This document shows positions 9,294 through 52,107 of a stretch of 64,000 nt of DNA, piece by piece. Source of the DNA: an uncultured Leptospirales bacterium (lineage in GTDB: Bacteria > Spirochaetota > UBA4802 > UBA5550); NCBI GenBank assembly GCA_964529415.1, contig CAZGWD010000013.1:29466-93465 (forward strand), given 5' to 3'. How positions within the stretch are numbered: position 1 is the stretch's first letter; each line of letters starts with the position of its first letter. Both the position numbers and the translations under genes were made by a program. The notes beneath the pieces are model-generated. The model worked only from the letters and a program-made list of their open reading frames with translations, was not told the origin of the DNA and did not search any database.

Positions 9294-10448
9294 TTATAAT
9301 TTTTTTATACAGATTATTGTGATGTCATCCTCCTGTATTGAGTAGTCGGTAAATTCATAATATGAGCTTAGAACATCAATTATAACAGAATTTGAACTGG
9401 TTTTGTCAGAGTTAAGCATGGCATTTATTAATCGTTCCTCTCCAAACATTTCAGTTTTATCACCTGACCAGGCTTCAGTTATACCATCAGAATACATCAG
9501 TAATATGTCGCCGCTTTCCATCGTGAATTTCGTATCAAGATATTCTGCATCTTTTAATACTCCGAGCATTGTACCTTTTGTTTTTACCCATGAAAATTTC
9601 CCTTGATCGGCGTGGTACAGCAAAGAGGGCGGATGACCCGCAGAGCTGTATGTTATTTCTCCGTTTCCCGCATTAATATCACAAGTTGCTGCAGTTGCGA
9701 GATAATAACTGTTTGATAGATTATTTGTCATGTCATTATTGACTCTTTGGATTATTTCAGATGGCCGCAGCAGTTCTTTCTGGAAAATCCGGAAAAGGCT
9801 TCTTATTTCATTACCTATATATGAAGTGGCAATACCATGGCCTGCGACATCACACACTATGAGGCGGGTGTTATTTTCCGAATATCTTATCCCGTCGAGG
9901 AAATCTCCGGATAGGTCTTCTGCAGGCAGCATTGAAAATGTTATATCAAAATTTTCAGTGCTTTTAAAATCAGGCAGAGATGACGCCTGTATTTCGCGGA
10001 CTTTGAAGATTTCTTTTTTATATCGATCCATCTCATGTCTTTCGTATTGTTTTAGTCTGTTGTATTCAACCGCTTTAAGAAGAGTTTTCTTAAACATCTG
10101 AGAGTCAATAGGTTTTATTATATAGTCAAAAACACCCAGCCTCAATGTATTTATTATTGCATTTGAGGTATCAACAACAGTCTGGACAAGTATCACAGGA
10201 TCTGCTGCAATTTCTTTTATGGCTGATATTAATTCATATCCGTCCATGTCCGGAAGAATCATATCTATTATAAAAATTGAATATTTATTTTTACGGATAA
10301 GCTCGATTGCGGGTTTTCCATCAGCTGCAGTATCTATCGGCAGACCAATTTCAATGCAGAGGTGTTCAATAAATTTTCTTGCTGTTGCTGAATCCTCTAT
10401 AATTAAAACAGGGTCAATTGTTTTTATATATCTATTAAGTTTATCCAT
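9294..10448 (-). CDS. response-regulator receiver domain fused to PP2C/SpoIIE-type phosphatase (RsbU-like)
   Basis: N-terminal CheY-like receiver (VLIIEDSATARKF...IIDMILPDMDGYEL) and a C-terminal PP2C region with CDVAGHGIATSY and MYSDGITEA motifs. Confidence 0.75.
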   Translation of the reverse strand: MDKLNRYIKTIDPVLIIEDSATARKFIEHLCIEIGLPIDTAADGKPAIELIRKNKYSIFIIDMILPDMDGYELISAIKEIAADPVILVQTVVDTSNAIINTLRLGVFDYIIKPIDSQMFKKTLLKAVEYNRLKQYERHEMDRYKKEIFKVREIQASSLPDFKSTENFDITFSMLPAEDLSGDFLDGIRYSENNTRLIVCDVAGHGIATSYIGNEIRSLFRIFQKELLRPSEIIQRVNNDMTNNLSNSYYLATAATCDINAGNGEITYSSAGHPPSLLYHADQGKFSWVKTKGTMLGVLKDAEYLDTKFTMESGDILLMYSDGITEAWSGDKTEMFGEERLINAMLNSDKTSSNSVIIDVLSSYYEFTDYSIQEDDITIICIKKL

Positions 10449-28700: not shown

Positions 28701-29963
28701 GACAGTTTGAAACATGCTGTTAGAAAAGCGCCGCTTTATAAAAATCTGCCTGAGTCTGTTCCAACGAGCCTTAAGGGCAGAAAATTATATATCCCGTACA
28801 TGGCAGATCACGCTTATGCTTTAAAAGCTGCTTTCAAGGGTAATGGCCTTGATGCGGAAGTTCTTCCTGAAACAGATGATGAAAGCCTTGAGTGGGGAAG
28901 AAAATATACCAACAGCAAGGAATGCTACCCGTACATTGTCACAACCGGCGATATGATCCGGAAATTAAAATCACCGGATTTCGATCCTGAGAAAACAGCA
29001 TTTTTTATGCCTGCATCGAGCAGTTTCTGCAGGCTCAATCATTATGAGTCATCGCAGAGGTTGATATTGCGCGAACTCGGTTATCCTGAAATACCGGTTT
29101 TCTCTCCTGATGCAGAGGACACGCTGTTTTCAGATCTCGACAGCGTTACCGAGGATTTCACAAAAGATGCGTGGAGAGGCGTTGTTGCAATTGATACAAT
29201 TTTTAAAGCACTTCGCGAAACCAAACCGTATGAATTGAACAAGGGCGAAACAGAAAAAGTTTACAGACGCGGCCTTGAGATGATCTGCAAAACTGTTGAA
29301 GAAAAAGGCGATCTTGTCAACACAATGAAAATAGTCCGCAGGGAATTTGATACAATTAAAACTGATAAAAGTAAAAAGAAACCTCTAATCGGCATTGTAG
29401 GTGAACTGTTCCTGAGATGGCATCCTTACAGCAATGCGCGCGTTGTTGAGCTTGTTGAGGAGCTTGGCGGAGAAGCATGGCTGCCTCCATTTTCTGAATC
29501 ATTGTATTATCTTAATGCTCTTGCAATGCATCATTCAAAGATGAAAAAAAATGTTAATGAATATTTAGGAACTTTTATTCAGGATCAGTATCAGCATATA
29601 GTTGACAAAAAACTTTCTGCAACTTTTTCCAATTACATAGTGAATTATCCTGAGCCGCGAATAAAGGATCTGTTTAAAATCAGTATGCCGTATTTCAATC
29701 CTATTGCTGAGAGCGAATCCCCAATGAGTATAGGCAAGTCGGTAAATTTTATTTCGCAGGGCGCGAGCGGTATCATCAATGTTATTCCATTTACATGTAT
29801 GCCCGGAACAATATCTGCGGCAATATTCAAGCGTTTGAAAGAGGATAACAAGGATGTGGCATTTCTTACATTGAAATATGACGGCAGCGGTGATGTTAAT
29901 ATACGCACAAGAGTTGAAGCTTTCATGCATCAGGCTGCGCAGTATGCTGATATGACGAATTAA
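25752..29963 (+). CDS. CoA-substrate-specific enzyme activase-type protein (tandem BadF/BadG/BcrA/BcrD ATPase domains plus HgdB/DUF2229-like C-terminal region)
   Basis: Two acetate/sugar-kinase-fold ATPase modules, each with GIDLGS/GVDVGS and the [4Fe-4S]-helix motif MNTLCAAGTGAFLEQQA / MNKVCAAGTGSFLEEQA. They are followed by ~800 aa with a CxxC...C region. Total length 1403 aa. Confidence 0.85.
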   Translation: MANINAAESRFFIGIDLGSVTVKVVLLDSGKNVLEKFYLRHKGHPGQELLKILEGLLDKYPAEKIEAIGITGSGGKRLAKVLGGVFINEVISETIAVSSLYPAVKTIINIGGQDSKLILVDGKAEPGKFILENFSMNTLCAAGTGAFLEQQAARLGISIEDEFGDMALKSKNPPRIAGRCSVFAKSDMIHLQQKGTADYDIVAGLCYAMARNFKATIGKNMKFEKDVAFIGGVARNKGMVKAFEDVLEIGEGSLVIPENNALIGAIGAAYNVIDRTDLEFIGLGEIRKYLKELVDLDKGHEPLFLREDHLLSKEETIEFHKPGEKVNAYLGVDVGSISTNVVLIDEKKRVLAKAYLRTGGKPIDAVKRGLQEISNDIGDYVNIIGACTTGSGRYLTGDFIGADLVKDEITAHARGAIEIDKDVDTIFEIGGQDSKYISIENGAIVDFEMNKVCAAGTGSFLEEQAERLGVSIQDEFSDLALCAKDPSRCGERCTVFMESDLVHHQQKGAQKEDIIAGLSYSIAYNFINKVVEDRRIGNHIFFQGGVAYNKGVVAAFEKVTGKLVTVPPHHEVMGAFGAALLAMDNDQGVVSRFKGFDCTKTEYKITTFECHHCTNFCTINRVLIEGEGDFYYGSRCDRYDIKKSEKVRHNVPDYFAERDDLLRNTYSKTVPEGKVKARIGIPLSMTIYEDYPFWKAFFTEIGCEPVLSDPTNRKHINSGLETVVEEICFPMKVLHGHVIDLIEKKVDFIFMPQMIELNNTNPDIKGSFLCPYVQGMPDVIRTAFDFDKIGIPILRPVIKFTLGTSFLENELHKSIGKKVGVRKGKIKKALKTAFSSLEKFTASVQEAGEKALSEIKKDEIAVVIVSRPYNGCDRGINLDIPRKFYNLGIKAIPMDYLPLNSFSVAKELPNMTWWFGQRILSAAKIIRTNPNLYPVYITNFACGPDSFIIQYFRYLIGNKPTLYLEIDEHSADAGIVTRSEAFIDSLKHAVRKAPLYKNLPESVPTSLKGRKLYIPYMADHAYALKAAFKGNGLDAEVLPETDDESLEWGRKYTNSKECYPYIVTTGDMIRKLKSPDFDPEKTAFFMPASSSFCRLNHYESSQRLILRELGYPEIPVFSPDAEDTLFSDLDSVTEDFTKDAWRGVVAIDTIFKALRETKPYELNKGETEKVYRRGLEMICKTVEEKGDLVNTMKIVRREFDTIKTDKSKKKPLIGIVGELFLRWHPYSNARVVELVEELGGEAWLPPFSESLYYLNALAMHHSKMKKNVNEYLGTFIQDQYQHIVDKKLSATFSNYIVNYPEPRIKDLFKISMPYFNPIAESESPMSIGKSVNFISQGASGIINVIPFTCMPGTISAAIFKRLKEDNKDVAFLTLKYDGSGDVNIRTRVEAFMHQAAQYADMTN

Positions 29964-39810: not shown

Positions 39811-40989
39811 ATGGATGCTTTGTTTTCAGACAGAATTTCAGATGTGCCTAAATCATTTATCCGGGAAATTCTTAAAGTGACTCTTGAAAAAGATGTCATC
39901 TCCTTTGCAGGCGGCCTTCCCAACCGTGAACTTTTTCCTGTAGAAAACCTGCGTAAAGCTACAGATAATGTTTATGCAAAAGCCGGCAGAGACGCCCTTC
40001 AATACAGCAATACTGAAGGTTATTTGGAACTCAGAAAATATATTTCAGATAAATATAAAAAACGCGGTATTGTAATTCCTGTGGAAAATATTATTATTAC
40101 TGCAGGTTCGCAGCAGGGCCTTGACCTTCTCGGAAAAGTTTTTATTAATGAAGGTGATGATATTATAATTGAGGAACCCGGGTATCTGGGTGCTATACAG
40201 GCTTTTTCAGTTTACAGAGCTTCATTTAATACTGTAAAAATTCAAAGTGACGGTCCGGACACTGATGAACTGGAAAAAATATTTTTAACCAGACAGCCCA
40301 AGCTGATCTATACAGTTCCGAATTTTCAGAATCCATCCGGATTAAGCTACTCTCCTGAAAAAAGAAAAAAAGTTTCCGAAATATTAAAAGGGAAAAAAAT
40401 ATTTCTTGTTGAAGATGATCCCTATGGTGAACTTCGTTTCTCAGGTGAGGAATCGCCCAGTTTCAAATCATTTTTACCTGACCAGACTATCCTGCTCGGA
40501 TCATTCTCAAAAACAGTTGTGCCTGGTTTCCGTCTCGGATGGATGGCAGTACCGCCGTCAATACTTGATAAAATTATTGTGGCCAAGCAGGCATCGGATC
40601 TTCATACCAACAATTTCTGCCAGAGAATTGTTTATGAATATATAACCGGATTTGATATTGAAAGCCACATCAGAAATATAGTTTCTGTGTACGGGAAGCA
40701 GCGCGATGCAATGATCCGGAGCATTGATGAATTTTTTCCTGATGGAGTAAAGCATACAGTGCCGGATGGCGGAATGTTTTTATGGGCTGAACTTCCTGAT
40801 AATATATCTTCAATGAAGCTTTTTGATATTGCAATCGGGAGGAAAGTTGCATTTGTTCCCGGAGATCCGTTTTATGTAAACAAAACAGGACCAATCAGCA
40901 CCTTGAGACTTAACTTCACATGCTCTGATGAAGAACAGATAAGAGAAGGAATAAAGCGTCTTGGTGAATCTATATCTGAATTATTATAA
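39811..40989 (+). CDS. PLP-dependent aminotransferase, class I/II
   Basis: Fold-type I aminotransferase with the PLP-lysine region SFSKTVVPGFRLGWMAVP and FLVEDDPYGEL. Confidence 0.85.
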   Translation: MDALFSDRISDVPKSFIREILKVTLEKDVISFAGGLPNRELFPVENLRKATDNVYAKAGRDALQYSNTEGYLELRKYISDKYKKRGIVIPVENIIITAGSQQGLDLLGKVFINEGDDIIIEEPGYLGAIQAFSVYRASFNTVKIQSDGPDTDELEKIFLTRQPKLIYTVPNFQNPSGLSYSPEKRKKVSEILKGKKIFLVEDDPYGELRFSGEESPSFKSFLPDQTILLGSFSKTVVPGFRLGWMAVPPSILDKIIVAKQASDLHTNNFCQRIVYEYITGFDIESHIRNIVSVYGKQRDAMIRSIDEFFPDGVKHTVPDGGMFLWAELPDNISSMKLFDIAIGRKVAFVPGDPFYVNKTGPISTLRLNFTCSDEEQIREGIKRLGESISELL

Positions 40990-41308
40990 TTTTAAAGTGA
41001 TAATTAGTGCTTTATCATTGCGTTCGAATCGATTTGAAGAGCCTTATTATGTTACATTCTGGAAAAAATCTTAGAAATATTTTTATGGTAAATAAAACTT
41101 TACAACCTGTCTTAAATGTCTATAGTATAATTTATTAATATTTCAAAATATATTATTCAAAGTTCAAATGCATCCCTTCATTTACTTCCGGCTGAAAATA
41201 TAATTTAATCTTTTGATTAATACTTGACTTTAATTAAAGCAATGAGCATAAATTAGTTCATTCTTATTTTAGCAAACAGAACTATTATCAGAGCATCGGA
41301 GGTTAAGA

Positions 41309-41680
41309 ATGAAATTCCTGATTATTGACGATTCAATGGTTATACGTTCTATACATAAAAATGTGCTGAAAGACAACAACATCAATGATGCTGATATTTT
41401 TGAAGCTGAAAACGGTAATACTGCAATTGAAATCGCCCAGAAGGAGGATATAGGACTCTTCCTTGTTGACTGGAACATGCCTGGGCTAAACGGCCTGGAA
41501 TTCGTTAAAAGAGTAAGATCATGGCCGAAATATGCAGAAACTCCAATCATAATGGTCACATCAGAGGCAGCCAAGTATAATGTCATGGAAGCCATAGATG
41601 CAGGTGCCACCAACTACATTGTCAAGCCGATTCACGGCGATTTGCTGTGGAGTAAAATATCCAGATATGTTGTATCATAA
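41309..41680 (+). CDS. cheY: CheY-like single-domain response regulator
   Basis: MKFLIIDDS...LFLVDWNMPGLNGLEF...YIVKPI with all receiver hallmarks in 123 aa. Confidence 0.85.
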   Translation: MKFLIIDDSMVIRSIHKNVLKDNNINDADIFEAENGNTAIEIAQKEDIGLFLVDWNMPGLNGLEFVKRVRSWPKYAETPIIMVTSEAAKYNVMEAIDAGATNYIVKPIHGDLLWSKISRYVVS

Positions 41681-41695
41681 CCTGAGGAGCAGACT

Positions 41696-42154
41696 ATGAA
41701 AGCTGAATATATAAACCCTTTTCTTGAAGCATCAATAAATCTTTTCAGAGAGCATTTAAAGTTTGATATTAAAAATACTACCCCGTATATCAACCAGGAT
41801 TCACAGAATCTTAATGAGGTATCTGCCATAATAGGCCTTGCCGGCGATATAGCCGGTGCTGTTGTTCTCAGCTTTACGCGTGAAACCGCGATCGCAATGG
41901 CATCCCGTTTCAGCGGCCAGACGTATCATGCTCTGAGCAAGGAGGTTATTGATGCAGTTGGTGAGCTTGTGAACATCATTGCAGGCAATGCAAAGAAAGA
42001 CCTGCTTGGATTCCGTATTGAAATATCCCTTCCCGGAGTTATCACAGGAAATACATATAAAATCAACTGGCCTCATGGAGTACCGGTTATTACAATTCCA
42101 TTTGAGTCGGATGCCGGAATTTTTTCAGTTAACGTTTCATTTAAGCAGCGATGA
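41696..42154 (+). CDS. cheX: CheX/CheC-family chemotaxis phosphatase-like protein
   Basis: INPFLEASINLFREHL N-terminus and GDIAGAVVLSF...ELVNIIAGNAK, typical of CheX. It starts 16 nt after cheY. Confidence 0.7.
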   Translation: MKAEYINPFLEASINLFREHLKFDIKNTTPYINQDSQNLNEVSAIIGLAGDIAGAVVLSFTRETAIAMASRFSGQTYHALSKEVIDAVGELVNIIAGNAKKDLLGFRIEISLPGVITGNTYKINWPHGVPVITIPFESDAGIFSVNVSFKQR

Positions 42155-44196
42155 GCACCCGAAGTCAGCTCCCGAGACTCAAGTTCATTCATGTTGCAAA
42201 GGGATTTCCCCGCGACCTTGAAAAAGATTATTATGAGGATTTTTTCCGTACATCCCTGCTGATCGTCCGTGTAGCTCTTATCCTCGGCATTGCCCTTTAT
42301 TCTCTTTTCGGCATTCTCGATATCTGGGTTGTTCCCCTGAATAAAAAAGCAGTATGGATTATCAGGTATGCGGTGGTATGTCCTATGCTGGGTGCAGCAT
42401 TGCTTCTGACCTATTTCGATATTTTTAAAAAGTACATGCAGGTCACTCTGTCTGCAGTCGGTTTTTTATCCGGATTCGGTATTGTGCTCATGATCGGATT
42501 TACTGCAGAAACGGAGCTCGGTTTTAAATTTTATTATGCAGGTCTGATGCTTGTTCTCATGTGGATATACGCACTTGTACGGCTCAGGTTTATTTATGCC
42601 ACGCTAATAAGCTGGGCAATTACTGTTTCCTATGAAATTGTAGCACTCGGTATTAATAAACTCCTCAGCACTCCTGATAATGTCACGGTCTTTATCAACA
42701 ATAACTTTTTTTTCATATCAGCCAACATAATAGGCATGTTTGCAAGCTTTACTATTGAATGGTATATGAGGAAGAATTATCTTCTGAGAATGGAAATCGA
42801 GAGATCGTATAATCTCAATAGAAAATATCTTGAAAACATCAGAGAAGGTCTTCTTCTCATAGATGACAGCTACACTATTCTTAATCAGTATTCTTCTTAT
42901 CTTCCCGTAATGTTCAGCAAAAATGAAATTGAGGGAATGAACTTTATTGATCTGGTAATGCCGGACCCGGAAAACATGAAACAGGAGAGAGCTGATCTCG
43001 AAAGATTTTTAAATTTTCTTTTTCATAATAAATCTGCAGATATTGACATGATCATGGATCTTAATCCGTTTGTAAACAGGCAGATCTATGTCAGTAACGG
43101 ATCCGTTGTAAAAGAACTTATCATCAATGCAGATTTTATCCGGATTCAGGATAGGGGCAGTGTAGAATTCGTCATGGCAATATTCCAGGACATGACTGAT
43201 ATAATGAAATTTGAAAAGCAGCTGGATGATCAGAAATCAAAACACCTGCAGGAAGTCGAAACAGTCACTGCAATACTCAGGTCCGGGCCGAAACTGTTCA
43301 GCGATTTTCTTAAAGAATCAGGAGAGATTCTTGATGATATCAGATCAAAAAGCAGCGACCTCGGCAGTTCAGAAACGCTTAATCATGTTTTCAGAGAGGC
43401 GCATTCACTAAAAGGTTCGGCAAAACATCTGGAGCTGAATCATATTTCTTCTACAGCGCATGCAATTGAAGATTTAATGGCGGAAATAAGAGACAGCTCC
43501 GGTTCCAACATAGCAGGGAAAAAATCTGAAATTGACAGGCTTATATCAGATCTCTTTAAAAACTTTGATGAACTAGGAACACTCATTGAAAAAATTTCCA
43601 TGTTCTCTAATCTCGGAAAAAGCAGAGCTGCTGAAAGTACGGAAAATCCGCTTAACGATTTTATTACATCCCTATATACGATGGTAAATAATCTTGCAAA
43701 AGAACTTGATAAAGATGTTCATCTGGTTATTGACAACAAGCTTACGGATGTTCCGTTTCTTGCTAAATTAAAAAATCCTATTATACATCTTATCCGGAAT
43801 TCTCTGGATCACGGGATTGAAGATAAATTTGAGAGACTGACATCAGGAAAAAATCAGACAGGAATAGTTTCAATATCTTTAAATGAAGATGCAGAGAAAT
43901 ATTATATTGAAATTTCTGATGACGGAGCAGGAATTGATTTTGATGCTGTGCGGAAGAAGGCTGAATTATTAGGCTTGCTGCCTTCCGGAGAAAAACCTGA
44001 AAAATCAGCACTTGTGAAGCTTTTATTCACTCCGAGTTTCAGTTCAAAAAACAAGGTAACTGAAATTTCAGGAAGGGGATACGGCCTGGATATTGTCAAG
44101 GTTGCAGTTGAAAGCCTTGGCGGGCAGATATCTGTTAAATCTGCCAGGGGTAAAGGTTCCAGGCTGATTATTTCTGTACCGAAAAATAATAGTTGA
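42151..44196 (+). CDS. membrane-bound CheA-like histidine kinase (6-TM sensor + Hpt + CheA-type HATPase; no CheW/P5 domain)
   Basis: Six N-terminal TM helices. The Hpt motif is FREAHSLKGSAKHLE. The CheA-P4-like ATPase has IHLIRNSLDHGIE, ISDDGAGID and GRGYGLDIV. The protein ends right after the ATPase. It overlaps the cheX stop (ATGA). Confidence 0.7.
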   Translation: MSTRSQLPRLKFIHVAKGFPRDLEKDYYEDFFRTSLLIVRVALILGIALYSLFGILDIWVVPLNKKAVWIIRYAVVCPMLGAALLLTYFDIFKKYMQVTLSAVGFLSGFGIVLMIGFTAETELGFKFYYAGLMLVLMWIYALVRLRFIYATLISWAITVSYEIVALGINKLLSTPDNVTVFINNNFFFISANIIGMFASFTIEWYMRKNYLLRMEIERSYNLNRKYLENIREGLLLIDDSYTILNQYSSYLPVMFSKNEIEGMNFIDLVMPDPENMKQERADLERFLNFLFHNKSADIDMIMDLNPFVNRQIYVSNGSVVKELIINADFIRIQDRGSVEFVMAIFQDMTDIMKFEKQLDDQKSKHLQEVETVTAILRSGPKLFSDFLKESGEILDDIRSKSSDLGSSETLNHVFREAHSLKGSAKHLELNHISSTAHAIEDLMAEIRDSSGSNIAGKKSEIDRLISDLFKNFDELGTLIEKISMFSNLGKSRAAESTENPLNDFITSLYTMVNNLAKELDKDVHLVIDNKLTDVPFLAKLKNPIIHLIRNSLDHGIEDKFERLTSGKNQTGIVSISLNEDAEKYYIEISDDGAGIDFDAVRKKAELLGLLPSGEKPEKSALVKLLFTPSFSSKNKVTEISGRGYGLDIVKVAVESLGGQISVKSARGKGSRLIISVPKNNS

Positions 44197-44221
44197 TAAA
44201 ACTATAAAAGGCAGTGAGTGC

Positions 44222-45664
44222 ATGACTATAAATGAAGAAAAAATTACAAGTCAGATAATGAAAAATTCGATCAGGTTTTCAGGTGAACTTGAAACGCTTT
44301 TTCATGAGGATTATTTTCTTAAATCTCTCGGCTCTGTAAGAAAGGCTCTTCTGCTTGCTTTTATTCTCTACGCATCTTTTGGTTTTCTCGATCTGATGAT
44401 TACGCCGCTTAGCAGCAGTCACACCTGGATTATCCGTTATGCAATTGTATGTCCTGTAATACTTGCTGCATATATAATGACTTATTTTGAAATATATGCC
44501 AGAATATCCCAGTATGTAATAAGCGCAGTTGCTCTAACTGCAGGATTCGGTATTCTCGGAATGATTTTTTTCGCTGTAGAAAAAGAAGGCAAACTGTATT
44601 ACTACGCAGGCCTGATCCTCGTAATAATGTGGAGCTATACGCTTGTCCGCATGAGATTCAGATATTCCACAATCACAAGCTGGACCATAGTTGCAGGTTA
44701 CGAATTGATGACTGTAGTTCTGCAGAATCTTGTTTCAACGCCGGATCTATACCCGAGTTTTATTAACAATAATTTCTTTTTTATTTCATCAAATATTATT
44801 GGAATGATGGCAGGTTATTACATTGAACTTTTCAGCAGAAAGGATTTTCTACAGCGCCTCCTGATTGCTGAAAAGCAGATAAAACTGACAGATGAAAGAA
44901 ACGAACTGAGTTCAAGAATGAATATGATGAACAAAGAACTTAATATGACCAGGATAATTCAGGAGCAGCTTATTCCGCTTGAACATCCGGGGGATTTTAT
45001 ATTTTCACTGTATAAGCCGATGGAGGCAGTTGGAGGAGATTTTTTCGATTTTATAAAATTCAGGGAACCTGACATAATTGGAATTTTCCTGAGCGATGTT
45101 TCAGGACATGGCGTACCTTCTGCTCTCATTACATCTATGGTGAAGGTTACTCTTCTTGAATCCAACAGATACAAGGATGATCCTGCAAAAATTCTGGCGC
45201 ATCTTAATGATCTTCTGGTGGGAATAAGCGGAGGGCATTTTATAACAGCATTTTACGGAGTTTTCGATATGAAGGAAAAAACTCTGGTTTATTCAAATGC
45301 AGGCCATTATCCGCCAATGCTGATTAGCGGAGGTGAGATATTGAATCTTGATAAGGCGTCAACTCTTCCCCTGGCAGTTTTATCCAATGATGAATTAACA
45401 AGCGGCAGTCAGATGTTTGAAAATGCCAGAGTAAAACTTCCGGATCAAGGGAAACTCTTTCTGTTTACAGACGGGCTTGTTGAGGCGAAAAATATTTTTA
45501 ATCCCCAGAATGATTTTTCGAGCATTCTTGACGGGATTTTACTTAAAAATATAGATCTTCCGGCAAAAGAGTTCATCAACGAGCTGTATAAAGAGCTAAT
45601 TTTATATAGAGGCTCTGAAAATTTTAATGATGATATCTGCATGATTGCTCTTGATCTGAACTGA
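44222..45664 (+). CDS. SiaA-like membrane PP2C (SpoIIE-type) phosphatase with the shared 6-TM sensor domain
   Basis: The N-terminal TM domain is paralogous to 42151 (IIRYAIVCP, YYAGLILVIMWSYTLVRMRF, FINNNFFFISSNIIGM). The C-terminal PP2C has LSDVSGHGVPSALIT and LFTDGLVEA. Confidence 0.7.
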   Translation: MTINEEKITSQIMKNSIRFSGELETLFHEDYFLKSLGSVRKALLLAFILYASFGFLDLMITPLSSSHTWIIRYAIVCPVILAAYIMTYFEIYARISQYVISAVALTAGFGILGMIFFAVEKEGKLYYYAGLILVIMWSYTLVRMRFRYSTITSWTIVAGYELMTVVLQNLVSTPDLYPSFINNNFFFISSNIIGMMAGYYIELFSRKDFLQRLLIAEKQIKLTDERNELSSRMNMMNKELNMTRIIQEQLIPLEHPGDFIFSLYKPMEAVGGDFFDFIKFREPDIIGIFLSDVSGHGVPSALITSMVKVTLLESNRYKDDPAKILAHLNDLLVGISGGHFITAFYGVFDMKEKTLVYSNAGHYPPMLISGGEILNLDKASTLPLAVLSNDELTSGSQMFENARVKLPDQGKLFLFTDGLVEAKNIFNPQNDFSSILDGILLKNIDLPAKEFINELYKELILYRGSENFNDDICMIALDLN

Positions 45665-45790
45665 CATCTGCCCCCGGGAAACAGGATTAAAATTCAATTT
45701 TTAACCAATTTACCCATGCAAAAATGAAATATGATTGAAATTTAATCCCCGATTAATTATATTATACAAGTTGCATCAGATATTTATTCG

Positions 45791-46288
45791 ATGGAGTCAT
45801 TCATGTCTGTAAAATTACAGAAACATATTACCTCGCATTGGGATGAAATTGAACAGGCCAGGGAAGACACACGGATTTTCATGAAATCGAATGACTATAC
45901 AGAAGATATTACTGATGCAATTATTATGGTAATCAGCGAACTTCTTGAAAATGCCGTCAAGTATGGTGTATTTACCTCATCTAATGAAGGCATAGATTAT
46001 TCAATTGAAGTGCACAAAGAAGCTATAATAGTAGAAGTGATTAACCCCTATGATACAGTTGCCCTGAATAATTTCAAGAGAATGGATAAAATAATACAAT
46101 GGATCCGCGGTTATCAGAATCCATTTCAGGCCTATATTGAAAAGCTGAAAGAAATTTCAGGAAGATCGCTTGAAGACAGGGAGAGCGGACTTGGGCTGGT
46201 GCGGATAGCATATCAGGGCCGGTCAATTGTTGATTTTTATCTAAGAAATGACAACAGGATATCCGTATCTGCAGTTTATCAGATATGA
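45791..46288 (+). CDS. SiaB/RsbW-like GHKL serine-protein kinase
   Basis: N-box ISELLENAVKYG and G-box ESGLGLVRIA. The ~165-aa size is typical of anti-sigma-type kinases. Confidence 0.55.
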   Translation: MESFMSVKLQKHITSHWDEIEQAREDTRIFMKSNDYTEDITDAIIMVISELLENAVKYGVFTSSNEGIDYSIEVHKEAIIVEVINPYDTVALNNFKRMDKIIQWIRGYQNPFQAYIEKLKEISGRSLEDRESGLGLVRIAYQGRSIVDFYLRNDNRISVSAVYQI

Positions 46289-46309
46289 TTTTAGTTAAAG
46301 GATTATAAT

Positions 46310-46669
46310 ATGAAAACCCATGCCAGCGATCTGCTGAAAATTGAAATTGACGAAAGCAAAGACAGCATTTTGATAAAATGGCTTGGAAAAAGTACGGCAC
46401 GCGATCCCGGGGATTTTATTATTCCAATACTCACTGATGAACTTAAAAAAGCCGGAGGTGATATCCACGTAATACTTGATTTCTGTGATCTTGAATACAT
46501 GAATTCATCTACAATGACTCCTATATCAAAAATTCTCGAGAATGCCAGATCCGGAAAATCCCGTGTATCAATTCATTACAGTAAATCGGTAAACTGGCAG
46601 GAGCTGAATTTTTCAGCTTTGAAAATATTTGAAACCAAAGACAAACGCATTGAGATATCCGGTAGATAA
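46310..46669 (+). CDS. SiaC-like (DUF1987-like) partner-switch target protein
   Basis: 119-aa protein. ILDFCDLEYMNSSTMTPISKILE resembles the SiaC phospho-site region as I recall it (…LDLRLLYLNTSSIKAMMDILD…). Gene order matches siaA-siaB-siaC. Confidence 0.5.
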   Translation: MKTHASDLLKIEIDESKDSILIKWLGKSTARDPGDFIIPILTDELKKAGGDIHVILDFCDLEYMNSSTMTPISKILENARSGKSRVSIHYSKSVNWQELNFSALKIFETKDKRIEISGR

Positions 46670-46671
46670 AA

Positions 46672-48060
46672 ATGACAGCAAAAGAAATATATGATGGCGT
46701 TTTACTCACTGATAACGGAAATATACAGGTTAAAATAAAATATATATCCAGAGTGACCGTTTCTGTGGATTTTCCTGATGACAAAAAGTTTCTGCACGGT
46801 GATGAATTCAATGGACTCATACTTTCATTAGGAATCGATTTTCATGAATTCGGTAGATGCAGGTACATTGTATCAGAGGGAAAAGGAAAATCATCCGGCA
46901 GGCTTGTTTTTCTAAATGATATTTATGATTTCAACTGCCTTTTTTTTGAAAAAAAAATTGTTTCACTCGACAGTTTTCATAATAATCTGGCGCTTATTTT
47001 TTCACAGAGGGATAATCTCAATGAGTCATTTGTAAAATATGTTGCTGACCTTACCTTTGATCTGAAAGTTTACCGTCATTTTTTTAACGATATCGATGCA
47101 AAATATTTTAATGAGGATGAAAATACAAAATCCATTCTTTTCAATGTGGTTCTTGAAAAGGAAGGCAGGAAATTCCTTGATTTTCTTGATGAAAAACTTA
47201 AGGATCTGGAACGTGTAATTGCAGATTTCACCAGAGAGGATCACAGGCTTCACGGATTTTATCTGAGGAAGCAACTGTGGGATGTTATCGAGTGTTCTGA
47301 ATTCATGCTGCACTGCAATCTAAGACCAAGAGGATACGCCGGCGACTCGGAATTGATGAGGATGATATATGAAAATGATTACAGGGGCGATTCAACATTC
47401 TCTAAAATTTTTTATAAGTATTCGCTGGATCATCCCGGAGCAGTAGCTGTCAGAAACAGAAAAATACTGATACCTGAATATCTCAAATCAGTGGCAGGCA
47501 GCAGCAATTTTAAAGGCGGGATCTGTAAATTCATGTCAGTTGCTTGCGGCCCTGCGTATGAGCTGACAGATATTTTTATCAATTCAGATGATATAAAAAA
47601 ATATAATTGCACGCTGCTTGATCAGGACTCTGAAGCGCTTAAAGAAGCTGAAGATAATATCAGAAATATTGAAAAGAAACTCGGAAGTACAATACAAGTC
47701 AAGTATCTTGAGGATTCTGTCCGTACCATGCTTAGAACTCCGGACCTGTCAGCGCAATGGGGGCGTTTTAATTTTATATATTCCATGGGGCTTTTTGACT
47801 ATCTTGCTCCTACTGTTGCAAAAGCTGTAATAGAAAAAATTTATGATCTTCTCGAGCCGGGCGGGCAGCTTCTCATCGGAAATTATCATCTCCTGAATAA
47901 AAGCAAGTGGTTCATGGAATACTGGCATGACTGGGTGCTTTATTACCGCTCGGAGGATGAATTCAAAGCGATTTTGAAAGATACCAATGCAGTTGATATC
48001 GCTATACGCATAGACGACTCGGGCAGCCAGATGTTTTTAAGTGCGAAAAAACCGGAATGA
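46672..48060 (+). CDS. protein with C-terminal class I SAM-dependent methyltransferase-like domain (N-terminal ~270 aa unknown)
   Basis: Motif I FMSVACGPAYELTDIF, the acidic motif II LLDQD, IYSMGLFDYL, and the LLEPGGQLLIGNY motif. It starts 2 nt after the SiaC-like gene. Confidence 0.5.
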   Translation: MTAKEIYDGVLLTDNGNIQVKIKYISRVTVSVDFPDDKKFLHGDEFNGLILSLGIDFHEFGRCRYIVSEGKGKSSGRLVFLNDIYDFNCLFFEKKIVSLDSFHNNLALIFSQRDNLNESFVKYVADLTFDLKVYRHFFNDIDAKYFNEDENTKSILFNVVLEKEGRKFLDFLDEKLKDLERVIADFTREDHRLHGFYLRKQLWDVIECSEFMLHCNLRPRGYAGDSELMRMIYENDYRGDSTFSKIFYKYSLDHPGAVAVRNRKILIPEYLKSVAGSSNFKGGICKFMSVACGPAYELTDIFINSDDIKKYNCTLLDQDSEALKEAEDNIRNIEKKLGSTIQVKYLEDSVRTMLRTPDLSAQWGRFNFIYSMGLFDYLAPTVAKAVIEKIYDLLEPGGQLLIGNYHLLNKSKWFMEYWHDWVLYYRSEDEFKAILKDTNAVDIAIRIDDSGSQMFLSAKKPE

Positions 48061-48097
48061 ATTACCTGACAGGACATTTAAAACGGCAGGCGGAATA

Positions 48098-49450
48098 ATG
48101 GCTGATAGCAGCAATATCGATCCGGAAAAAAAATTTTATAACAGCAATGATTTTAATGAATACCTTATAGGGATTATTCATGACTGGTCAAAAACTCTGA
48201 CTACTCTTGCCTATACGCTTGTTCCTCTTTTTTTTATACTCGATTATTTTACTATGCCCCGGGAGCTGCTTCCCCGCTTCGCGTTCTACCGGGTTATTGC
48301 AACCATTATTGCGCTGATCCAGTATATTGTAGTTAAAAATACAAAACCCAGTAAAATTTCATACGTTCACGGTTATCTTGTTTCATTGATTCTCGGCGGT
48401 GTAATTGCACTAATGACTGTTGATCTCGGAGGATTCAGTTCCGGCTATTATGCTGGACTAAATCTTGTTATAATAGGTGTGAATATTCTTCTTCCATGGG
48501 AGACTTACCATTCCGCCATCAACGGACTCATGACTATACTGATGTATGTTGTTCTTAATGTGGTTTTTGGCGGGAATTTTAATGCAAATGATTTAACCAG
48601 CAATCTTTTTTTTATGAACGCGACTGTTATAATCTCTGTAAGCATTAATCTTGTACGCAGCAAGCTCATAAAAAGAGAGTTCGCTCTGCGCTCGGAAGTT
48701 CAGAATGCAAGGGACGCCCTGTGGGGAGAAATGGAAGTAGCGAAAAAAATTCAGACATCGCTGCTTCCTAAAAATAAACGAATCGGCAGTTATGAAATGG
48801 CGGCACTTATGGAACCCGCAGCAGAAATTGGTGGCGATTACTACGATGCTGTTGAAACAAATGCAGGTGAAAACTGGGTTATGATAGGAGATGTTTCAGG
48901 TCATGGAGTTGAGTCAGGGCTTATTATGATGATGACACAAACGAGTATATTTTCAATTATCAATGACACCCCGGGACAACGTCCAATGAATGTAATTAAT
49001 AATGTTAATTCTGTTATCCGGAAAAATATTTCCAGACTTGGTTCAAACATGTATATGACCCTCTTTGCTATTAGACTTGAAAATGATTCTGTGATGCTGG
49101 CAGGAAAACATCAGGATATAATAATTTACAGGGCAAAGTCCGGAACAGTTGATGTAATACAGGTTCAGGGTACCTGGATCGGTCTTGCGGATGATATTGC
49201 TCCTTTTCTGAGTGATATAAAAATTGAAATTTTCGAAAACGATATCATGCTTCTTTTTACTGATGGAGTTACAGAAGCCATGAACGATAGTGGAGAAATG
49301 TTTAATCAGGACCGTCTCATTGCTTTATTTAAAATATATTCATCTTTATCTCCTGAAAATATTGTCAGGAATATTGCTGAAGACATAGGTAAATTCCAGA
49401 AAAAACAGTATGATGACATAACACTTATAGCACTGAAAAAAAACTATTAA
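48098..49450 (+). CDS. membrane PP2C (SpoIIE-type) phosphatase, divergent paralog
   Basis: The ORF is listed from 48041, overlapping the previous gene by 20 nt. The ATG at 48098 (MADSSNID) is preferred. There are six TM helices (YYAGLNLVII) and a PP2C with IGDVSGHGVESGLIM and LFTDGVTEA. Confidence 0.65.
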   Translation: MADSSNIDPEKKFYNSNDFNEYLIGIIHDWSKTLTTLAYTLVPLFFILDYFTMPRELLPRFAFYRVIATIIALIQYIVVKNTKPSKISYVHGYLVSLILGGVIALMTVDLGGFSSGYYAGLNLVIIGVNILLPWETYHSAINGLMTILMYVVLNVVFGGNFNANDLTSNLFFMNATVIISVSINLVRSKLIKREFALRSEVQNARDALWGEMEVAKKIQTSLLPKNKRIGSYEMAALMEPAAEIGGDYYDAVETNAGENWVMIGDVSGHGVESGLIMMMTQTSIFSIINDTPGQRPMNVINNVNSVIRKNISRLGSNMYMTLFAIRLENDSVMLAGKHQDIIIYRAKSGTVDVIQVQGTWIGLADDIAPFLSDIKIEIFENDIMLLFTDGVTEAMNDSGEMFNQDRLIALFKIYSSLSPENIVRNIAEDIGKFQKKQYDDITLIALKKNY

Positions 49451-49595
49451 ACCATATTAAAAAATTTTCTTAACAAGCATACAGCATTTTGAAAACAAAG
49501 TTTATTTTATTGTCTGTAAAACAAGTAAGATTCTTGACATATTTTCATGATATGGATAATATAAATAAAATTAAACGGTTATTACAGGAGTTCCA

Positions 49596-49988
49596 GTGAG
49601 TATTGAAGTTGAAATTATAAAAGTTACAGCTGTTTCGATTGATATAATAGATTATAATATACTGATCTTCAAAATCAATCCGGAAAAAAGAATTAATTCG
49701 GATAACTCCAATGAACTTTGGATAATTCTAAATACTCTTATTGACGCCGGAGTTAAGAAGATTCTTGTTGATTTAAAGTTAGTGGAATATATTGACAGTT
49801 CCGGTATCGGCATTTTTATTAATGCGACAAAAAAAGTACGGAAGAAACAGGGGGATCTGGTTCTTGCCAATACATCCAAGGAAATAAAGGAAATTTTTAA
49901 AGTAATCAACCTCCAGAATTTCATTAAAATATATAATACAGATACGGAAGCATCTAATTATTTCAGGCTCTCTTTCCCTTCTGAATAA
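49596..49988 (+). CDS. STAS-domain anti-sigma-factor antagonist (SpoIIAA/RsbV-like)
   Basis: ILVDLKLVEYIDSSGIGIFINATKKVRKKQGDLVLANTSKEIKEIFKVINL is a canonical STAS with the conserved phosphorylatable Ser in DSSG. Confidence 0.75.
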   Translation: MSIEVEIIKVTAVSIDIIDYNILIFKINPEKRINSDNSNELWIILNTLIDAGVKKILVDLKLVEYIDSSGIGIFINATKKVRKKQGDLVLANTSKEIKEIFKVINLQNFIKIYNTDTEASNYFRLSFPSE

Positions 49989-49991
49989 GCC

Positions 49992-51821
49992 TCATTGTTG
50001 AAATTTATTTTTTTCTTTTAAATCATTTATTGTACAGTATTCCCTGATTATTCTGATAAATATACTGCCGTAGCGTTCATATTTATTTAAGCCCACACCG
50101 TATATATTCATCATTGAAGATTTTTGCTGAGGGAAATATACTGTCATTTCAATAAGGGTTCTATCGGAGAAAATAATATATGGCGGAATATTTTCCTCAT
50201 CAGCAAGTTCCTTTCTTTTTTTTCTCAGTATGTTAAACAATTCTGTATCGTGATCCTGTTCTATCCTTTTCTGTGATTTATCTGTTTTTTTAATATCATC
50301 CATTACAGGAGCCTGAATTTTTTCTGTTCCTTTCATAATGCTGAATCCGCGCTGAGTGATTTTTAATATTCCGAAGTTGTCCGCGTCCTGTATTAGCGCG
50401 CCTTCTCTTATGAACTGCCTTGCGAGGTGCAGCCAGTATTTTTTTGAATAATCTTTTGCTATGCCCCACGTTGGAAGTTTGTGATGCCCGAAGTCAATAA
50501 TCTTCTTGGATTCCGAACCTCTCAGTATGTCTATTACATGGTTCATTCCGAATCTTTCATCAGTTCTCCTGACACATGATAGAAACATCTGCGCCTTGAC
50601 TGAAACATCTTCCATAGGAACGGCACTGCCGGTGCAGTTGTCGCACGCTCCGCAGTTTTTTACACTGTAATCCTCGCCGAAATATTTTATAAGAGGAATG
50701 CGCCTGCAGGAGGTTGATTCAGCATAATCGATAAGACTTGCAAGATGATGGTTCGCTATTTTCTTTTCGTTGTCATTTTCTTTCTGATCAATGAAATATT
50801 TAATTTTGCGAATGTCGGAGTAGCTGTAGAGTAAAAGGCAGTTTGCCGGAAGCCCGTCGCGTCCGGCTCTTCCTGTTTCCTGATAATAAGATTCTATGCT
50901 CTTCGGCAGATCATGATGAATAACGAATCTTACATTCGTTTTATGTATTCCCATGCCGAATGCAATTGTTGCAACGACAATCTGCACTTCATCCCTGATG
51001 AATAATTCCTGGTTGCGTTTTCTCTGTTCGTCTGAGAGTCCAGCGTGATATGGCCTGACTGAATAACCGTGTTCCAGAAGCTTTTCAGAAAGAGTATCCA
51101 CCTGGTTTCTCGAAAAACAATAGATAATGCCGGACTGGGATGGAAATTTGTTTAAAAATTCAAGTGTCTGCTGCATGGAATTCTGTTTGGGAATAACCTG
51201 AAAAAAAAGATTCTCCCTGTTGAAGCTTGCAATATAACTGTTCGAATCTTTCATTTCAAGATTTTTCAGTATGTCGTTTCTTACGCGCTCTGTCGCAGTT
51301 GCAGTAAGAGCAACGCAGACTGCTGAAGGGATTTTTTTTCTGAATTTCACAATCTGCCTGTATTCCGGACGGAAGTCGTGACCCCATTCAGAAATGCAGT
51401 GAGCCTCATCTATTGCAATGCAGTCAACCTGCAATGAAAAAAGCATCCCGGATATGTCCGGTTTAACCAGTGTTTCAGGCGCAACATATAAAAGCTTAAT
51501 TCTGCTATTTCGGACAAGGTTTTTGTTTTCATGATATTCCTCAAGATCAAGAGAACTGTTAAGCATTACTGCCGGAATATTGAGAATCCTCAGCTGGTCT
51601 ATCTGGTCTTTCATGAGAGATATAAGCGGTGAAACTACAATTGTCAGCCCTTTGAACAGCATTGCCGGAATCTGGTAGCAGACAGATTTTCCGCCCCCTG
51701 TTGGCATTAAAACCAGTGTATCTTTTTTATCAAGAACAGATTTAATTATTTCTTCCTGGAGAGATTTGAATTCATCATATCCGAAAGTTTCTTTTAATAT
51801 TTTATTAGCCTGGTTTATCAT
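49992..51821 (-). CDS. recQ: ATP-dependent DNA helicase RecQ
   Basis: FGYDEFKSLQEEII, Walker A LMPTGGGKS, DEAH (AIDEAHCISEWGHDFRPEY), and Zn-binding, winged-helix and HRDC regions. Confidence 0.95.
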   Translation of the reverse strand: MINQANKILKETFGYDEFKSLQEEIIKSVLDKKDTLVLMPTGGGKSVCYQIPAMLFKGLTIVVSPLISLMKDQIDQLRILNIPAVMLNSSLDLEEYHENKNLVRNSRIKLLYVAPETLVKPDISGMLFSLQVDCIAIDEAHCISEWGHDFRPEYRQIVKFRKKIPSAVCVALTATATERVRNDILKNLEMKDSNSYIASFNRENLFFQVIPKQNSMQQTLEFLNKFPSQSGIIYCFSRNQVDTLSEKLLEHGYSVRPYHAGLSDEQRKRNQELFIRDEVQIVVATIAFGMGIHKTNVRFVIHHDLPKSIESYYQETGRAGRDGLPANCLLLYSYSDIRKIKYFIDQKENDNEKKIANHHLASLIDYAESTSCRRIPLIKYFGEDYSVKNCGACDNCTGSAVPMEDVSVKAQMFLSCVRRTDERFGMNHVIDILRGSESKKIIDFGHHKLPTWGIAKDYSKKYWLHLARQFIREGALIQDADNFGILKITQRGFSIMKGTEKIQAPVMDDIKKTDKSQKRIEQDHDTELFNILRKKRKELADEENIPPYIIFSDRTLIEMTVYFPQQKSSMMNIYGVGLNKYERYGSIFIRIIREYCTINDLKEKNKFQQ

Positions 51822-52107
51822 ATTATCTATTTAGATTTTTTTAATTCACTTTATTATTAATACGAATATAAATCAATTTTTGTAAATTATTCTTATAAAA
51901 AAAATAATGAATGAATAATGCAAACCAAATTTTATTAGCCTGGTTTGATCAGTTCATTGTTATTTCGGCTGTAGCCTCTGCATGCATTTGTGATAAACTT
52001 CACAAAATTTCAGAATCTCACAGATATTGTATAATTATTATAGTCTTTTTTAATTATATATTAAAATTAAACTTGATTATTTTAAAAGAAGAAGTAATTA
52101 TAATAAA

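Follow-up and report, generated by a model that had tools for sequence, protein, structure and literature searches.

The 64,000-nucleotide stretch of DNA analyzed here (hereafter the window; positions 29,466 to 93,465 of the forward strand of contig CAZGWD010000013.1, GenBank assembly GCA_964529415.1, from an uncultured Leptospirales bacterium) carries a cassette of signaling genes encoding, in succession, a small kinase-like protein (K), a STAS/SiaC-like protein (C), a methyltransferase (MT), designated M, and a downstream membrane PP2C phosphatase (P). A first-pass annotation made from the sequence alone had delimited four co-directional, tightly spaced genes at 44222-48060, namely a membrane PP2C followed by K, C and M, and had likened them to the SiaABCD system of Pseudomonas, with M in the position of the diguanylate cyclase. 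All four open reading frames (ORFs) were recovered there on the forward strand, and the 462-aa gene starts 2 nt past the 119-aa gene, as described. The analysis presented below indicates, however, that the cassette may represent an undescribed cell-to-cell signaling circuit and not a variant of SiaABCD. After scanning the window proteins with Pfam and NCBIfam profiles, the genes at the core of the locus were assigned as follows:

44222..45664, + strand: PP2C#1, a second membrane PP2C phosphatase of 480 aa (SpoIIE 127.5 bits, cut-off 25)
45791..46288, + strand: K, a small GHKL anti-sigma-kinase-like protein of 165 aa (ORF and family profiles)
46310..46669, + strand: C, a STAS-superfamily, SiaC-like putative phosphoprotein of 119 aa (fold and motif)
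46672..48060, + strand: M, a PhcB-family class I S-adenosylmethionine (SAM)-dependent MT of 462 aa
48041..49450 (longest ORF), + strand: P, a MASE8-like membrane sensor with a PP2C/SpoIIE phosphatase (SpoIIE 116.2 bits, same cut-off)

The gaps PP2C#1-K, K-C and C-M in the window measure 126, 21 and 2 nt, respectively. The longest ORF of P opens with a GTG codon at 48041, so that its first 20 nt lie within M; judging from the sequence, the true start is likely the ATG at 48098, 37 nt past the M stop codon.

Conservation of the cassette was surveyed in 80 fetched genome loci, comprising 79 distinct MT loci, 71 of them with enough flanking sequence to be evaluated; locus ORFs were scanned with hidden Markov models (HMMs) from the window and the fetched loci, and gene starts are HMM-derived. 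Of the 71 evaluable loci, 60 have K, C, M and a full-length PP2C gene in the same orientation. Median gaps are 12.5 nt for K-C, 4 nt for C-M (interquartile range 2-5; approximately 70 loci) and 45 nt for M-P. In six Myxococcota loci, K-M-P is accompanied by a C-like gene at another position, the order K-M-P-C being seen in this phylum, and the other incomplete evaluable loci look like diverged or broken genes. When three divergent C homologs were taken as starting points, the same gene set was retrieved each time, arranged as K-C-P-M in locus L089, and the context of three distant M homologs reads, in order, small GHKL protein, 123-aa protein, MT and MASE8+SpoIIE phosphatase. The hosts belong to Spirochaetota, Desulfobacterota, Myxococcota, Calditrichota and Fidelibacterota, and include Leptospira weilii; single cassette bins were found in Gammaproteobacteria, Nitrospirales and Bacteroidota. 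More than 1,300 full-length homologs of M, of about 465 aa, are available: an exhaustive representative search with M returned 1,312 clusters at E<=1e-30, a count that may include PhcB-type and PilZ-fused relatives. A tblastn search with K against plasmids yielded no match.

Only the window and L005, a relative with 91% protein identity, have a PP2C gene directly 5' of K. It follows that the phosphatase proper to the conserved cassette is P, encoded downstream of M and beyond the region initially delimited, and not the upstream PP2C that the first-pass annotation had called SiaA-like. Thus, the conserved unit is K-C-M-P, and PP2C#1 is a lineage-specific accessory copy.

The locus survey and the C-homolog look-ups indicate that K, C, M and P are kept together, even though their order changes, in at least six phyla. 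This persistence argues against the very improbable explanation that the four genes are neighbors without a common pathway, a generic partner switch with an unlinked target having been co-inherited with a housekeeping lipid MT. The locus shows no recognizable target of K or C, which speaks for such an arrangement; nevertheless, this explanation would not account for the retention of the four genes across rearrangements, for the C-M spacing of 2-5 nt, which suggests translational coupling and whose median of 4 nt fits a functional, perhaps physical, link, nor for the fact that an MT-MASE8 pairing arises independently in phc operons, as described below.

Three domains make up M: residues 1-80 form an N-terminal beta-barrel, residues 87-277 a helical domain and residues 285-459 the Rossmann MT domain. 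Class I MT models of Pfam match residues 285-440 of window M below threshold, and neither a GGDEF match nor a GGDEF motif was detected in M, so that the proposal of a class I SAM methyltransferase without GGDEF in the C-terminal half of this protein was borne out. Whereas the single M sequence gave only marginal matches against PDB, alignment of the M family (A1) with a family of PhcB-like proteins (A3) using hhalign returned a probability of 100% and an E-value of 3.2e-40 over 435 columns (23-470 versus 32-477), that is, near full length. On the strength of these profiles, M is a full-length homolog of the PhcB family, with which it shares the complete MT architecture at approximately 21% identity, the comparison set comprising sequences of Paraburkholderia, Cupriavidus and Massilia. 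These come from operons recognized by their synteny, by database names and by the landmarks R22 and H230/H233. The layout of these operons (MT / MASE8-HisKA-HATPase / REC-HisKA-HATPase / REC) matches the description of the phcBSRQ operon in PMC8578825; R22, reported as a conserved PhcB residue (PMC6989110), is invariant throughout A3, and the names of the A3 members in JGI and NCBI are taken from the PhcB KEGG orthology (KO) entry. No solved PhcB structure was present among the PDB matches, and the best structural neighbors of M were small-molecule MTs (3ocj, SgvM, TmtA, CmoA and cyclopropane fatty acid synthase).

A role of the N-terminal barrel of window M as a functional cyclic di-GMP (c-di-GMP)-binding PilZ domain was considered and rejected, with no PilZ match and no RxxxR motif in it. 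Several longer M relatives do carry an N-terminal PilZ domain, with scores of up to 82.7 bits (P0357, P0358, P0360, P0367, P0386 and P0390, of about 595-625 aa, and P0369 and P0378, of about 795 aa), hinting at c-di-GMP control in some members of the family. In P0367, the PilZ match (160-229) falls at the start of the family's own N-terminal beta-barrel, and the barrel common to M and PhcB is therefore probably PilZ-like. In two Spirochaetota loci, small proteins with weak or faint PilZ matches are encoded on the opposite strand just past the phosphatase (L002, 10742-11128; L003, 10776-11123), with a PAS-GGDEF-EAL gene farther downstream in L002, which is another hint at a link with c-di-GMP.

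Both window phosphatases contain the catalytic PP2C motifs DVSGHG, TDG and DDI and are of the SpoIIE/RsbU type. Precomputed Pfam matches assign MASE8 to cassette PP2Cs and to PhcS-like kinases alike, and the N-terminus of P is 59% identical to that of the L001 PP2C, which has one of these precomputed MASE8 matches. Since the local hmmscan was much less sensitive for MASE8, a sensor profile was built from 130 cassette-associated N-termini and no others. Three PhcS-like kinases scored 47-54 bits with this profile, along a stretch of about 175 residues. As controls, 90 composition-matched shuffles and reversed sequences reached at most 2.8 bits and SecF 2.4 bits, and all other ORFs in the loci stayed under 9 bits. 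The aligned membrane domains (A5) have in common the motifs LDY..P, RFA..R and YYAGL.L.I. Taken at the level of sequence, the membrane domain of P and the MASE8 sensor of PhcS-like kinases adjoining phcB are homologs, and M thus has next to it a candidate receptor with a PhcS-type sensor, with the caveat that the local hmmscan misses MASE8 in the window.

The same N-terminal membrane domain is shared by P, PP2C#1 and a 681-aa CheA-like kinase encoded upstream of PP2C#1, whose residues 23-219 score 156 bits against the profile of the cassette PP2C membrane domain; the window therefore holds two extra proteins with a MASE8-like domain, PP2C#1 and this kinase. Further proteins with this domain were found in 32 of the 79 loci, coupled to PAS-HisKA-HATPase(-REC), GGDEF-EAL, methyl-accepting chemotaxis protein (MCP) or Hpt-HATPase outputs. 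In two Leptospirales/Turneriellaceae loci (L044, 7418-8767; L055, 7398-8735), the protein of about 450 aa that follows the MT matches only the membrane part of the PP2C profile (60-79 bits), and its C-terminal half may be diverged or may constitute a different output domain.

In the Phc system, the master virulence switch of Ralstonia, the quorum signal is a 3-hydroxy fatty acid methyl ester (3-OH-PAME or 3-OH-MAME) synthesized by PhcB, and PhcB and PhcS vary together there according to the type of signal. Since a PhcB-type MT and a MASE8 sensor are paired in two otherwise different operon types, a synthase-receptor pair is the simplest reading of M and P. Indeed, M has the same length and three-domain layout as its counterpart in the phcBSRQ operons of Ralstonia and Cupriavidus, with homology over about 435 columns, and in both cases the MT adjoins a protein with a MASE8 membrane sensor. 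There are also clear differences. The output of the cassette sensor is a PP2C phosphatase, whereas that of PhcS is a HisKA-HATPase transmitter; PhcR- and PhcQ-like genes are absent from the conserved contexts of the cassette; the cassette MT is preceded by a GHKL protein and a STAS-like protein; and the hosts are Spirochaetota, Desulfobacterota, Myxococcota and others, in contrast to the Burkholderiales that harbor Phc. A separate MASE8-Hpt-HATPase kinase is encoded in the window, together with CheY and CheX, upstream of the cassette. In the literature consulted, Phc is described only for Ralstonia and its close relatives Cupriavidus and Paraburkholderia, and PMC11960443, which deals with PhcS, offers no account of how PhcS recognizes its ligand.

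The view of M as an uncharacterized effector of the switch is consequently modified. Its tight linkage with C is confirmed, but the protein is not anonymous, being a full-length homolog of PhcB that adjoins a MASE8 sensor; on account of both features, the MT may be the signal source rather than, or as well as, the output.

The 119-aa protein C had been annotated as SiaC/DUF1987-like, a proposal that holds for the STAS-type fold and the invariant Ser/Thr motif but not for the family assignment. Window C scores 12.8 bits (E 0.095, cut-off 24.5) against the SiaC/DUF1987 model PF09345, has no Pfam match at E<=0.01 and, by these scores, does not qualify as a DUF1987 member. Among 37 C relatives, PF09345 is matched by 32 and STAS by 15 (E<0.01), and the NCBIfam models slr1659_superfam, anti-sigma antagonist and SiaC equivalog by 37, 30 and 7, respectively; window C itself reaches 30.9 bits against the slr1659 model (NF047705, cut-off 100). 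In the C-family alignment (A2), the motif LEYMNSSTxTP is invariant (S66, S67, T70), with T68 present in at least 90% of the members. Foldseek searches with the AlphaFold2 (AF2) model of C (pLDDT 93.8) retrieved SpoIIAA (E 5e-6, TM 0.66-0.68), RsbV (TM 0.69) and TM1442, the three spanning E 5e-6 to 4e-4, with SiaC (6kko_C) at rank 27 (E 2.8e-3, TM 0.66). Against PDB sequences, the C-family profile found the STAS protein TM1442 (E 3e-5) and not SiaC, and the single C sequence gave no match. S66, at the N-terminus of helix 66-81, aligns with the serine of the YMDS motif of TM1442, the position of the phosphorylated serine in SpoIIAA-type proteins. Family profile matches and predicted fold together place C as a STAS-superfamily protein between the canonical antagonists and SiaC, with a candidate Ser/Thr phosphorylation site where helix 2 begins.

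Matches of window K remained below threshold (HATPase_c_2 18.6 bits; NCBIfam slr1658_superfam, NF047703, 49.3 bits versus a cut-off of 100). Among its 36 relatives in alignment A4, however, HATPase_c_2 is matched by 35 (best E 1.3e-11) and DUF6272 by 25, and the N-box (E50, E53, N54) and G2 box (S132-G133-x-G135) are invariant. The best matches of the K profile in PDB were SpoIIAB (E 0.02) and RsbW; SiaB chains were not matched, nor did any SiaB model match in the NCBIfam scan of the window. Thus, of the SiaB-like GHKL kinase proposed for this gene, the GHKL assignment stands and the affinity to SiaB does not. Kinase activity of K is plausible but may be of an atypical kind, and K might instead serve as a binding protein devoid of catalysis. 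The family carries an insertion, LDxTIQWIRGYQDPFEAYIEKLKE, that is common to DUF6272 and slr1658-type proteins.

SiaABCD of Pseudomonas aeruginosa comprises the PP2C SiaA, the kinase SiaB, the DUF1987 phosphoprotein SiaC and the diguanylate cyclase SiaD. The cassette resembles it in encoding a membrane PP2C, a small kinase-like protein and a small STAS-like putative phosphoprotein together with an enzyme that is possibly regulated, as well as in the SiaC-like fold of C and the PF09345 matches of many C relatives. In contrast, the cassette has no GGDEF enzyme, its phosphatase gene follows that of the enzyme whereas SiaA heads the sia operon, and its sensor domain is MASE8. Furthermore, the two window PP2Cs score only 43 and 51 bits against the NCBIfam SiaA equivalog (cut-off 700), the SiaC equivalog score is likewise far under its cut-off, and SiaB is undetected. 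Membership in SiaABCD was therefore rejected, a SiaC-type DUF1987 protein, SiaA and SiaB, and a GGDEF partner having each been looked for in vain. Accordingly, a SiaA-like phosphatase at 44222 is upheld as a PP2C but not as SiaA, and the overall picture of a DUF1987 switch wired to an MT survives as a linkage of PP2C, GHKL protein and STAS-like protein with an MT, outside the Sia family. Among the models for the families invoked in that picture, SpoIIE matched the window proteins, while PF09345, HATPase_c_2 and the class I MT models stayed below threshold on them.

A switch that works in the SiaABCD manner without belonging to that system, in essence the reading of the first-pass annotation, is a separate matter, and one that we regard as rather unlikely. 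In such a switch, M would be the sole output, activated or inhibited by unphosphorylated C, the MASE8 domain of P would sense an unrelated environmental cue, and the product of M would be a methylated metabolite not sensed by the membrane domains of the cassette. The almost universal C-M linkage, in which the two genes are separated by 2 nt in the window and typically by 4 nt (median), speaks for this possibility, as do the STAS/SiaC-like fold of C, the 32 of 37 relatives matching PF09345 and the proposal that it is a general function of DUF1987 proteins to modulate what neighboring proteins do (PMC8457831). Nevertheless, it leaves unexplained why a PhcB homolog and a MASE8 sensor recur together in phc operons that have neither K nor C; moreover, C is not adjacent to M in Myxococcota, P stands between C and M in L089, and no cassette protein qualified as a Sia component. 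The two views are not mutually exclusive, since binding of M by C is also a partner-switch step of the synthase-receptor circuit that we favor.

Classical STAS partner-switching modules, SpoIIE/SpoIIAA/SpoIIAB and RsbU/RsbV/RsbW, provide the best matches for C (TM1442 in the sequence search, SpoIIAA in the structural one) and for K (SpoIIAB), and their phosphatase is likewise of the PP2C/SpoIIE type. The cassette differs from them in that an enzyme gene is embedded in it, in the degenerate G1 box of K with the insertion described above, and in the lack of a sigma factor: none was found in the region 40000-52000 of the window (ORFs, Pfam and NCBIfam) or in the conserved cassette, and a sequestered target of this kind is thus missing from it. 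The best NCBIfam matches of K (49 bits) and C (31 bits) correspond to the slr1658/slr1659 pair of cyanobacteria (NF047703/NF047705), but both scores are far under the 100-bit cut-offs, as expected for relatives and not for members of that pair. A regulatory phenotype has been described for an slr1658 mutant of Synechocystis (PMC7555055).

In summary of these comparisons, the cassette is partner-switch-like and Phc-like in its workings, yet it is a member of neither SiaABCD nor Phc, since the Sia components are not recognized in it and it lacks both the transmitter and the regulators of Phc. No description of the K-C-M-P cassette was found in the literature searched, which left most subscription journals uncovered.

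Overall, we assign a probability of about 50% to the model of a Phc-like synthase-receptor circuit wired to a K/C phospho-switch. Building on the genes, folds, homologies and conserved linkage observed, we infer that M would convert a lipid-like carboxylate, by methylation, into a hydrophobic methyl ester, which would partition into the membrane and be sensed there by the MASE8 domain of P; in the genome of the window, PP2C#1 and the MASE8-Hpt-HATPase kinase feeding CheY/CheX may sense the ester as well. P would then dephosphorylate C at the invariant NSST motif (S66 or T68), with K opposing P by phosphorylating or sequestering C. Unphosphorylated C would switch partner, either freeing the target of K or binding M as SiaC binds SiaD, and in the latter case a feedback loop on signal synthesis would be closed. 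Direct control of M by C is plausible in view of the 2-5 nt spacing between both genes and of the proposal on DUF1987 proteins made in PMC8457831.

Several observations weigh against this model. The identity of M to the PhcB-like proteins, about 21% overall, rises only to about 27% over the C-terminal 285 residues, so that the substrate of M may differ from that of PhcB, and the link to PhcB was established through Paraburkholderia, Cupriavidus and Massilia operons and not through authenticated Ralstonia PhcB or PhcS. The PhcB family has the same N-terminal domain as M without any K or C partner. The local Pfam scan did not find MASE8 on the window proteins or on isolated N-termini, including those of PhcS-like kinases, and the Paraburkholderia kinase scored 17.6 bits against MASE8 in that scan (cut-off 26.2). 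The K family is devoid of the canonical G1 DxGxG box, with a VxNPV consensus in its place followed by the conserved insertion, which makes the kinase activity of K uncertain. Finally, the cassette encodes no output such as a sigma factor or a transcription factor.

If the model holds, the cassette would represent a new class of autoinducer circuit in organisms for which no description of quorum sensing was found, would provide a candidate ligand class for the MASE8 domain, and would add to SiaC-SiaD a second case in which a STAS-like phosphoprotein is in a position to act on an enzyme and not on a sigma factor. A more specific version can be put forward only tentatively, at less than even odds: that Phc-type lipid methyl-ester signaling operates far outside Burkholderiales, with a MASE8-PP2C receptor and with K/C providing both the readout and the gating of a PhcB-like synthase. 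This reading would span Leptospirales (including a Leptospira weilii genome), Desulfobacterota, Myxococcota, Calditrichota and Fidelibacterota, and under it MASE8 domains would in general serve to sense fatty acid methyl esters that the cell itself produces. Should the model fail, the cassette would still be a widespread uncharacterized signaling module.

The genes and sites surrounding the cassette in the window are the following:

41309..41680, + strand: CheY-like receiver (Pfam Response_reg 91 bits)
41696..42154, + strand: CheX phosphatase (Pfam CheX 89.8 bits)
42151..44196, + strand: membrane (MASE8-like)-Hpt-HATPase CheA-like kinase of 681 aa (Hpt and HATPase_c; NCBIfam CheA 174 bits)
45735..45763, + strand: promoter-like site TTGAAA-17-TATATT (consensus match only, 10/12 positions)
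49596..49988, + strand: canonical STAS anti-sigma-factor antagonist of 130 aa (STAS 60.1 bits; TIGR00377 64.6 bits, over cut-off)

The promoter-like site falls inside the 126-nt gap ahead of K, and this match to the consensus suggests that K-C-M-P could form a transcription unit apart from CheY-CheX-kinase-PP2C#1. CheY, CheX and the 681-aa kinase are encoded together, directly upstream of PP2C#1. In the kinase, the MASE8-like membrane domain is joined directly to Hpt and HATPase domains (CheA P1+P4-like), with no CheW-binding domain in Pfam, and the three genes resemble a phosphorelay of the chemotaxis type in which a membrane sensor provides the input and neither an MCP nor CheW takes part. 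Proteins of about 680 aa similar to this kinase are encoded near the cassette in six Spirochaetota loci (L005, L006, L009, L012, L017 and L060).

The presence of CheY, CheX and a CheA-like kinase upstream in the window, together with an MCP bearing a MASE8 domain in L003, raises the question of whether the substrates of M could be the signaling proteins themselves, such as the MASE8 sensors, K or C. By analogy with CheR and chemoreceptors, or with RsbM and RsbK of Bacillus cereus, methylation would then adapt the partner switch and the neighboring CheA/CheY/CheX-like genes. M shows a weak, partial match to the CheR SAM domain (E 0.0026, residues 360-414; PDB CheR E 0.066), and RsbM shows that MTs can take part in partner-switch pathways (PMC4574943). 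We nevertheless consider this explanation improbable: the likeness to CheR is under the cut-off and limited to a generic SAM-binding segment, the best structural neighbors of M are small-molecule MTs, the protein to which it is homologous over its full length, PhcB, synthesizes a small-molecule ester, and the chemotaxis-like genes lie outside the conserved cassette.

The STAS antagonist at 49596-49988 sits 145 nt beyond P and may be a second substrate of both PP2Cs. A third PP2C-type protein, of 384 aa, is encoded at 9294-10448 on the - strand; it scores 125 bits against the C-terminal, phosphatase part of the cassette PP2C profile and has no membrane domain. The genome thus appears to be rich in PP2C signaling genes.

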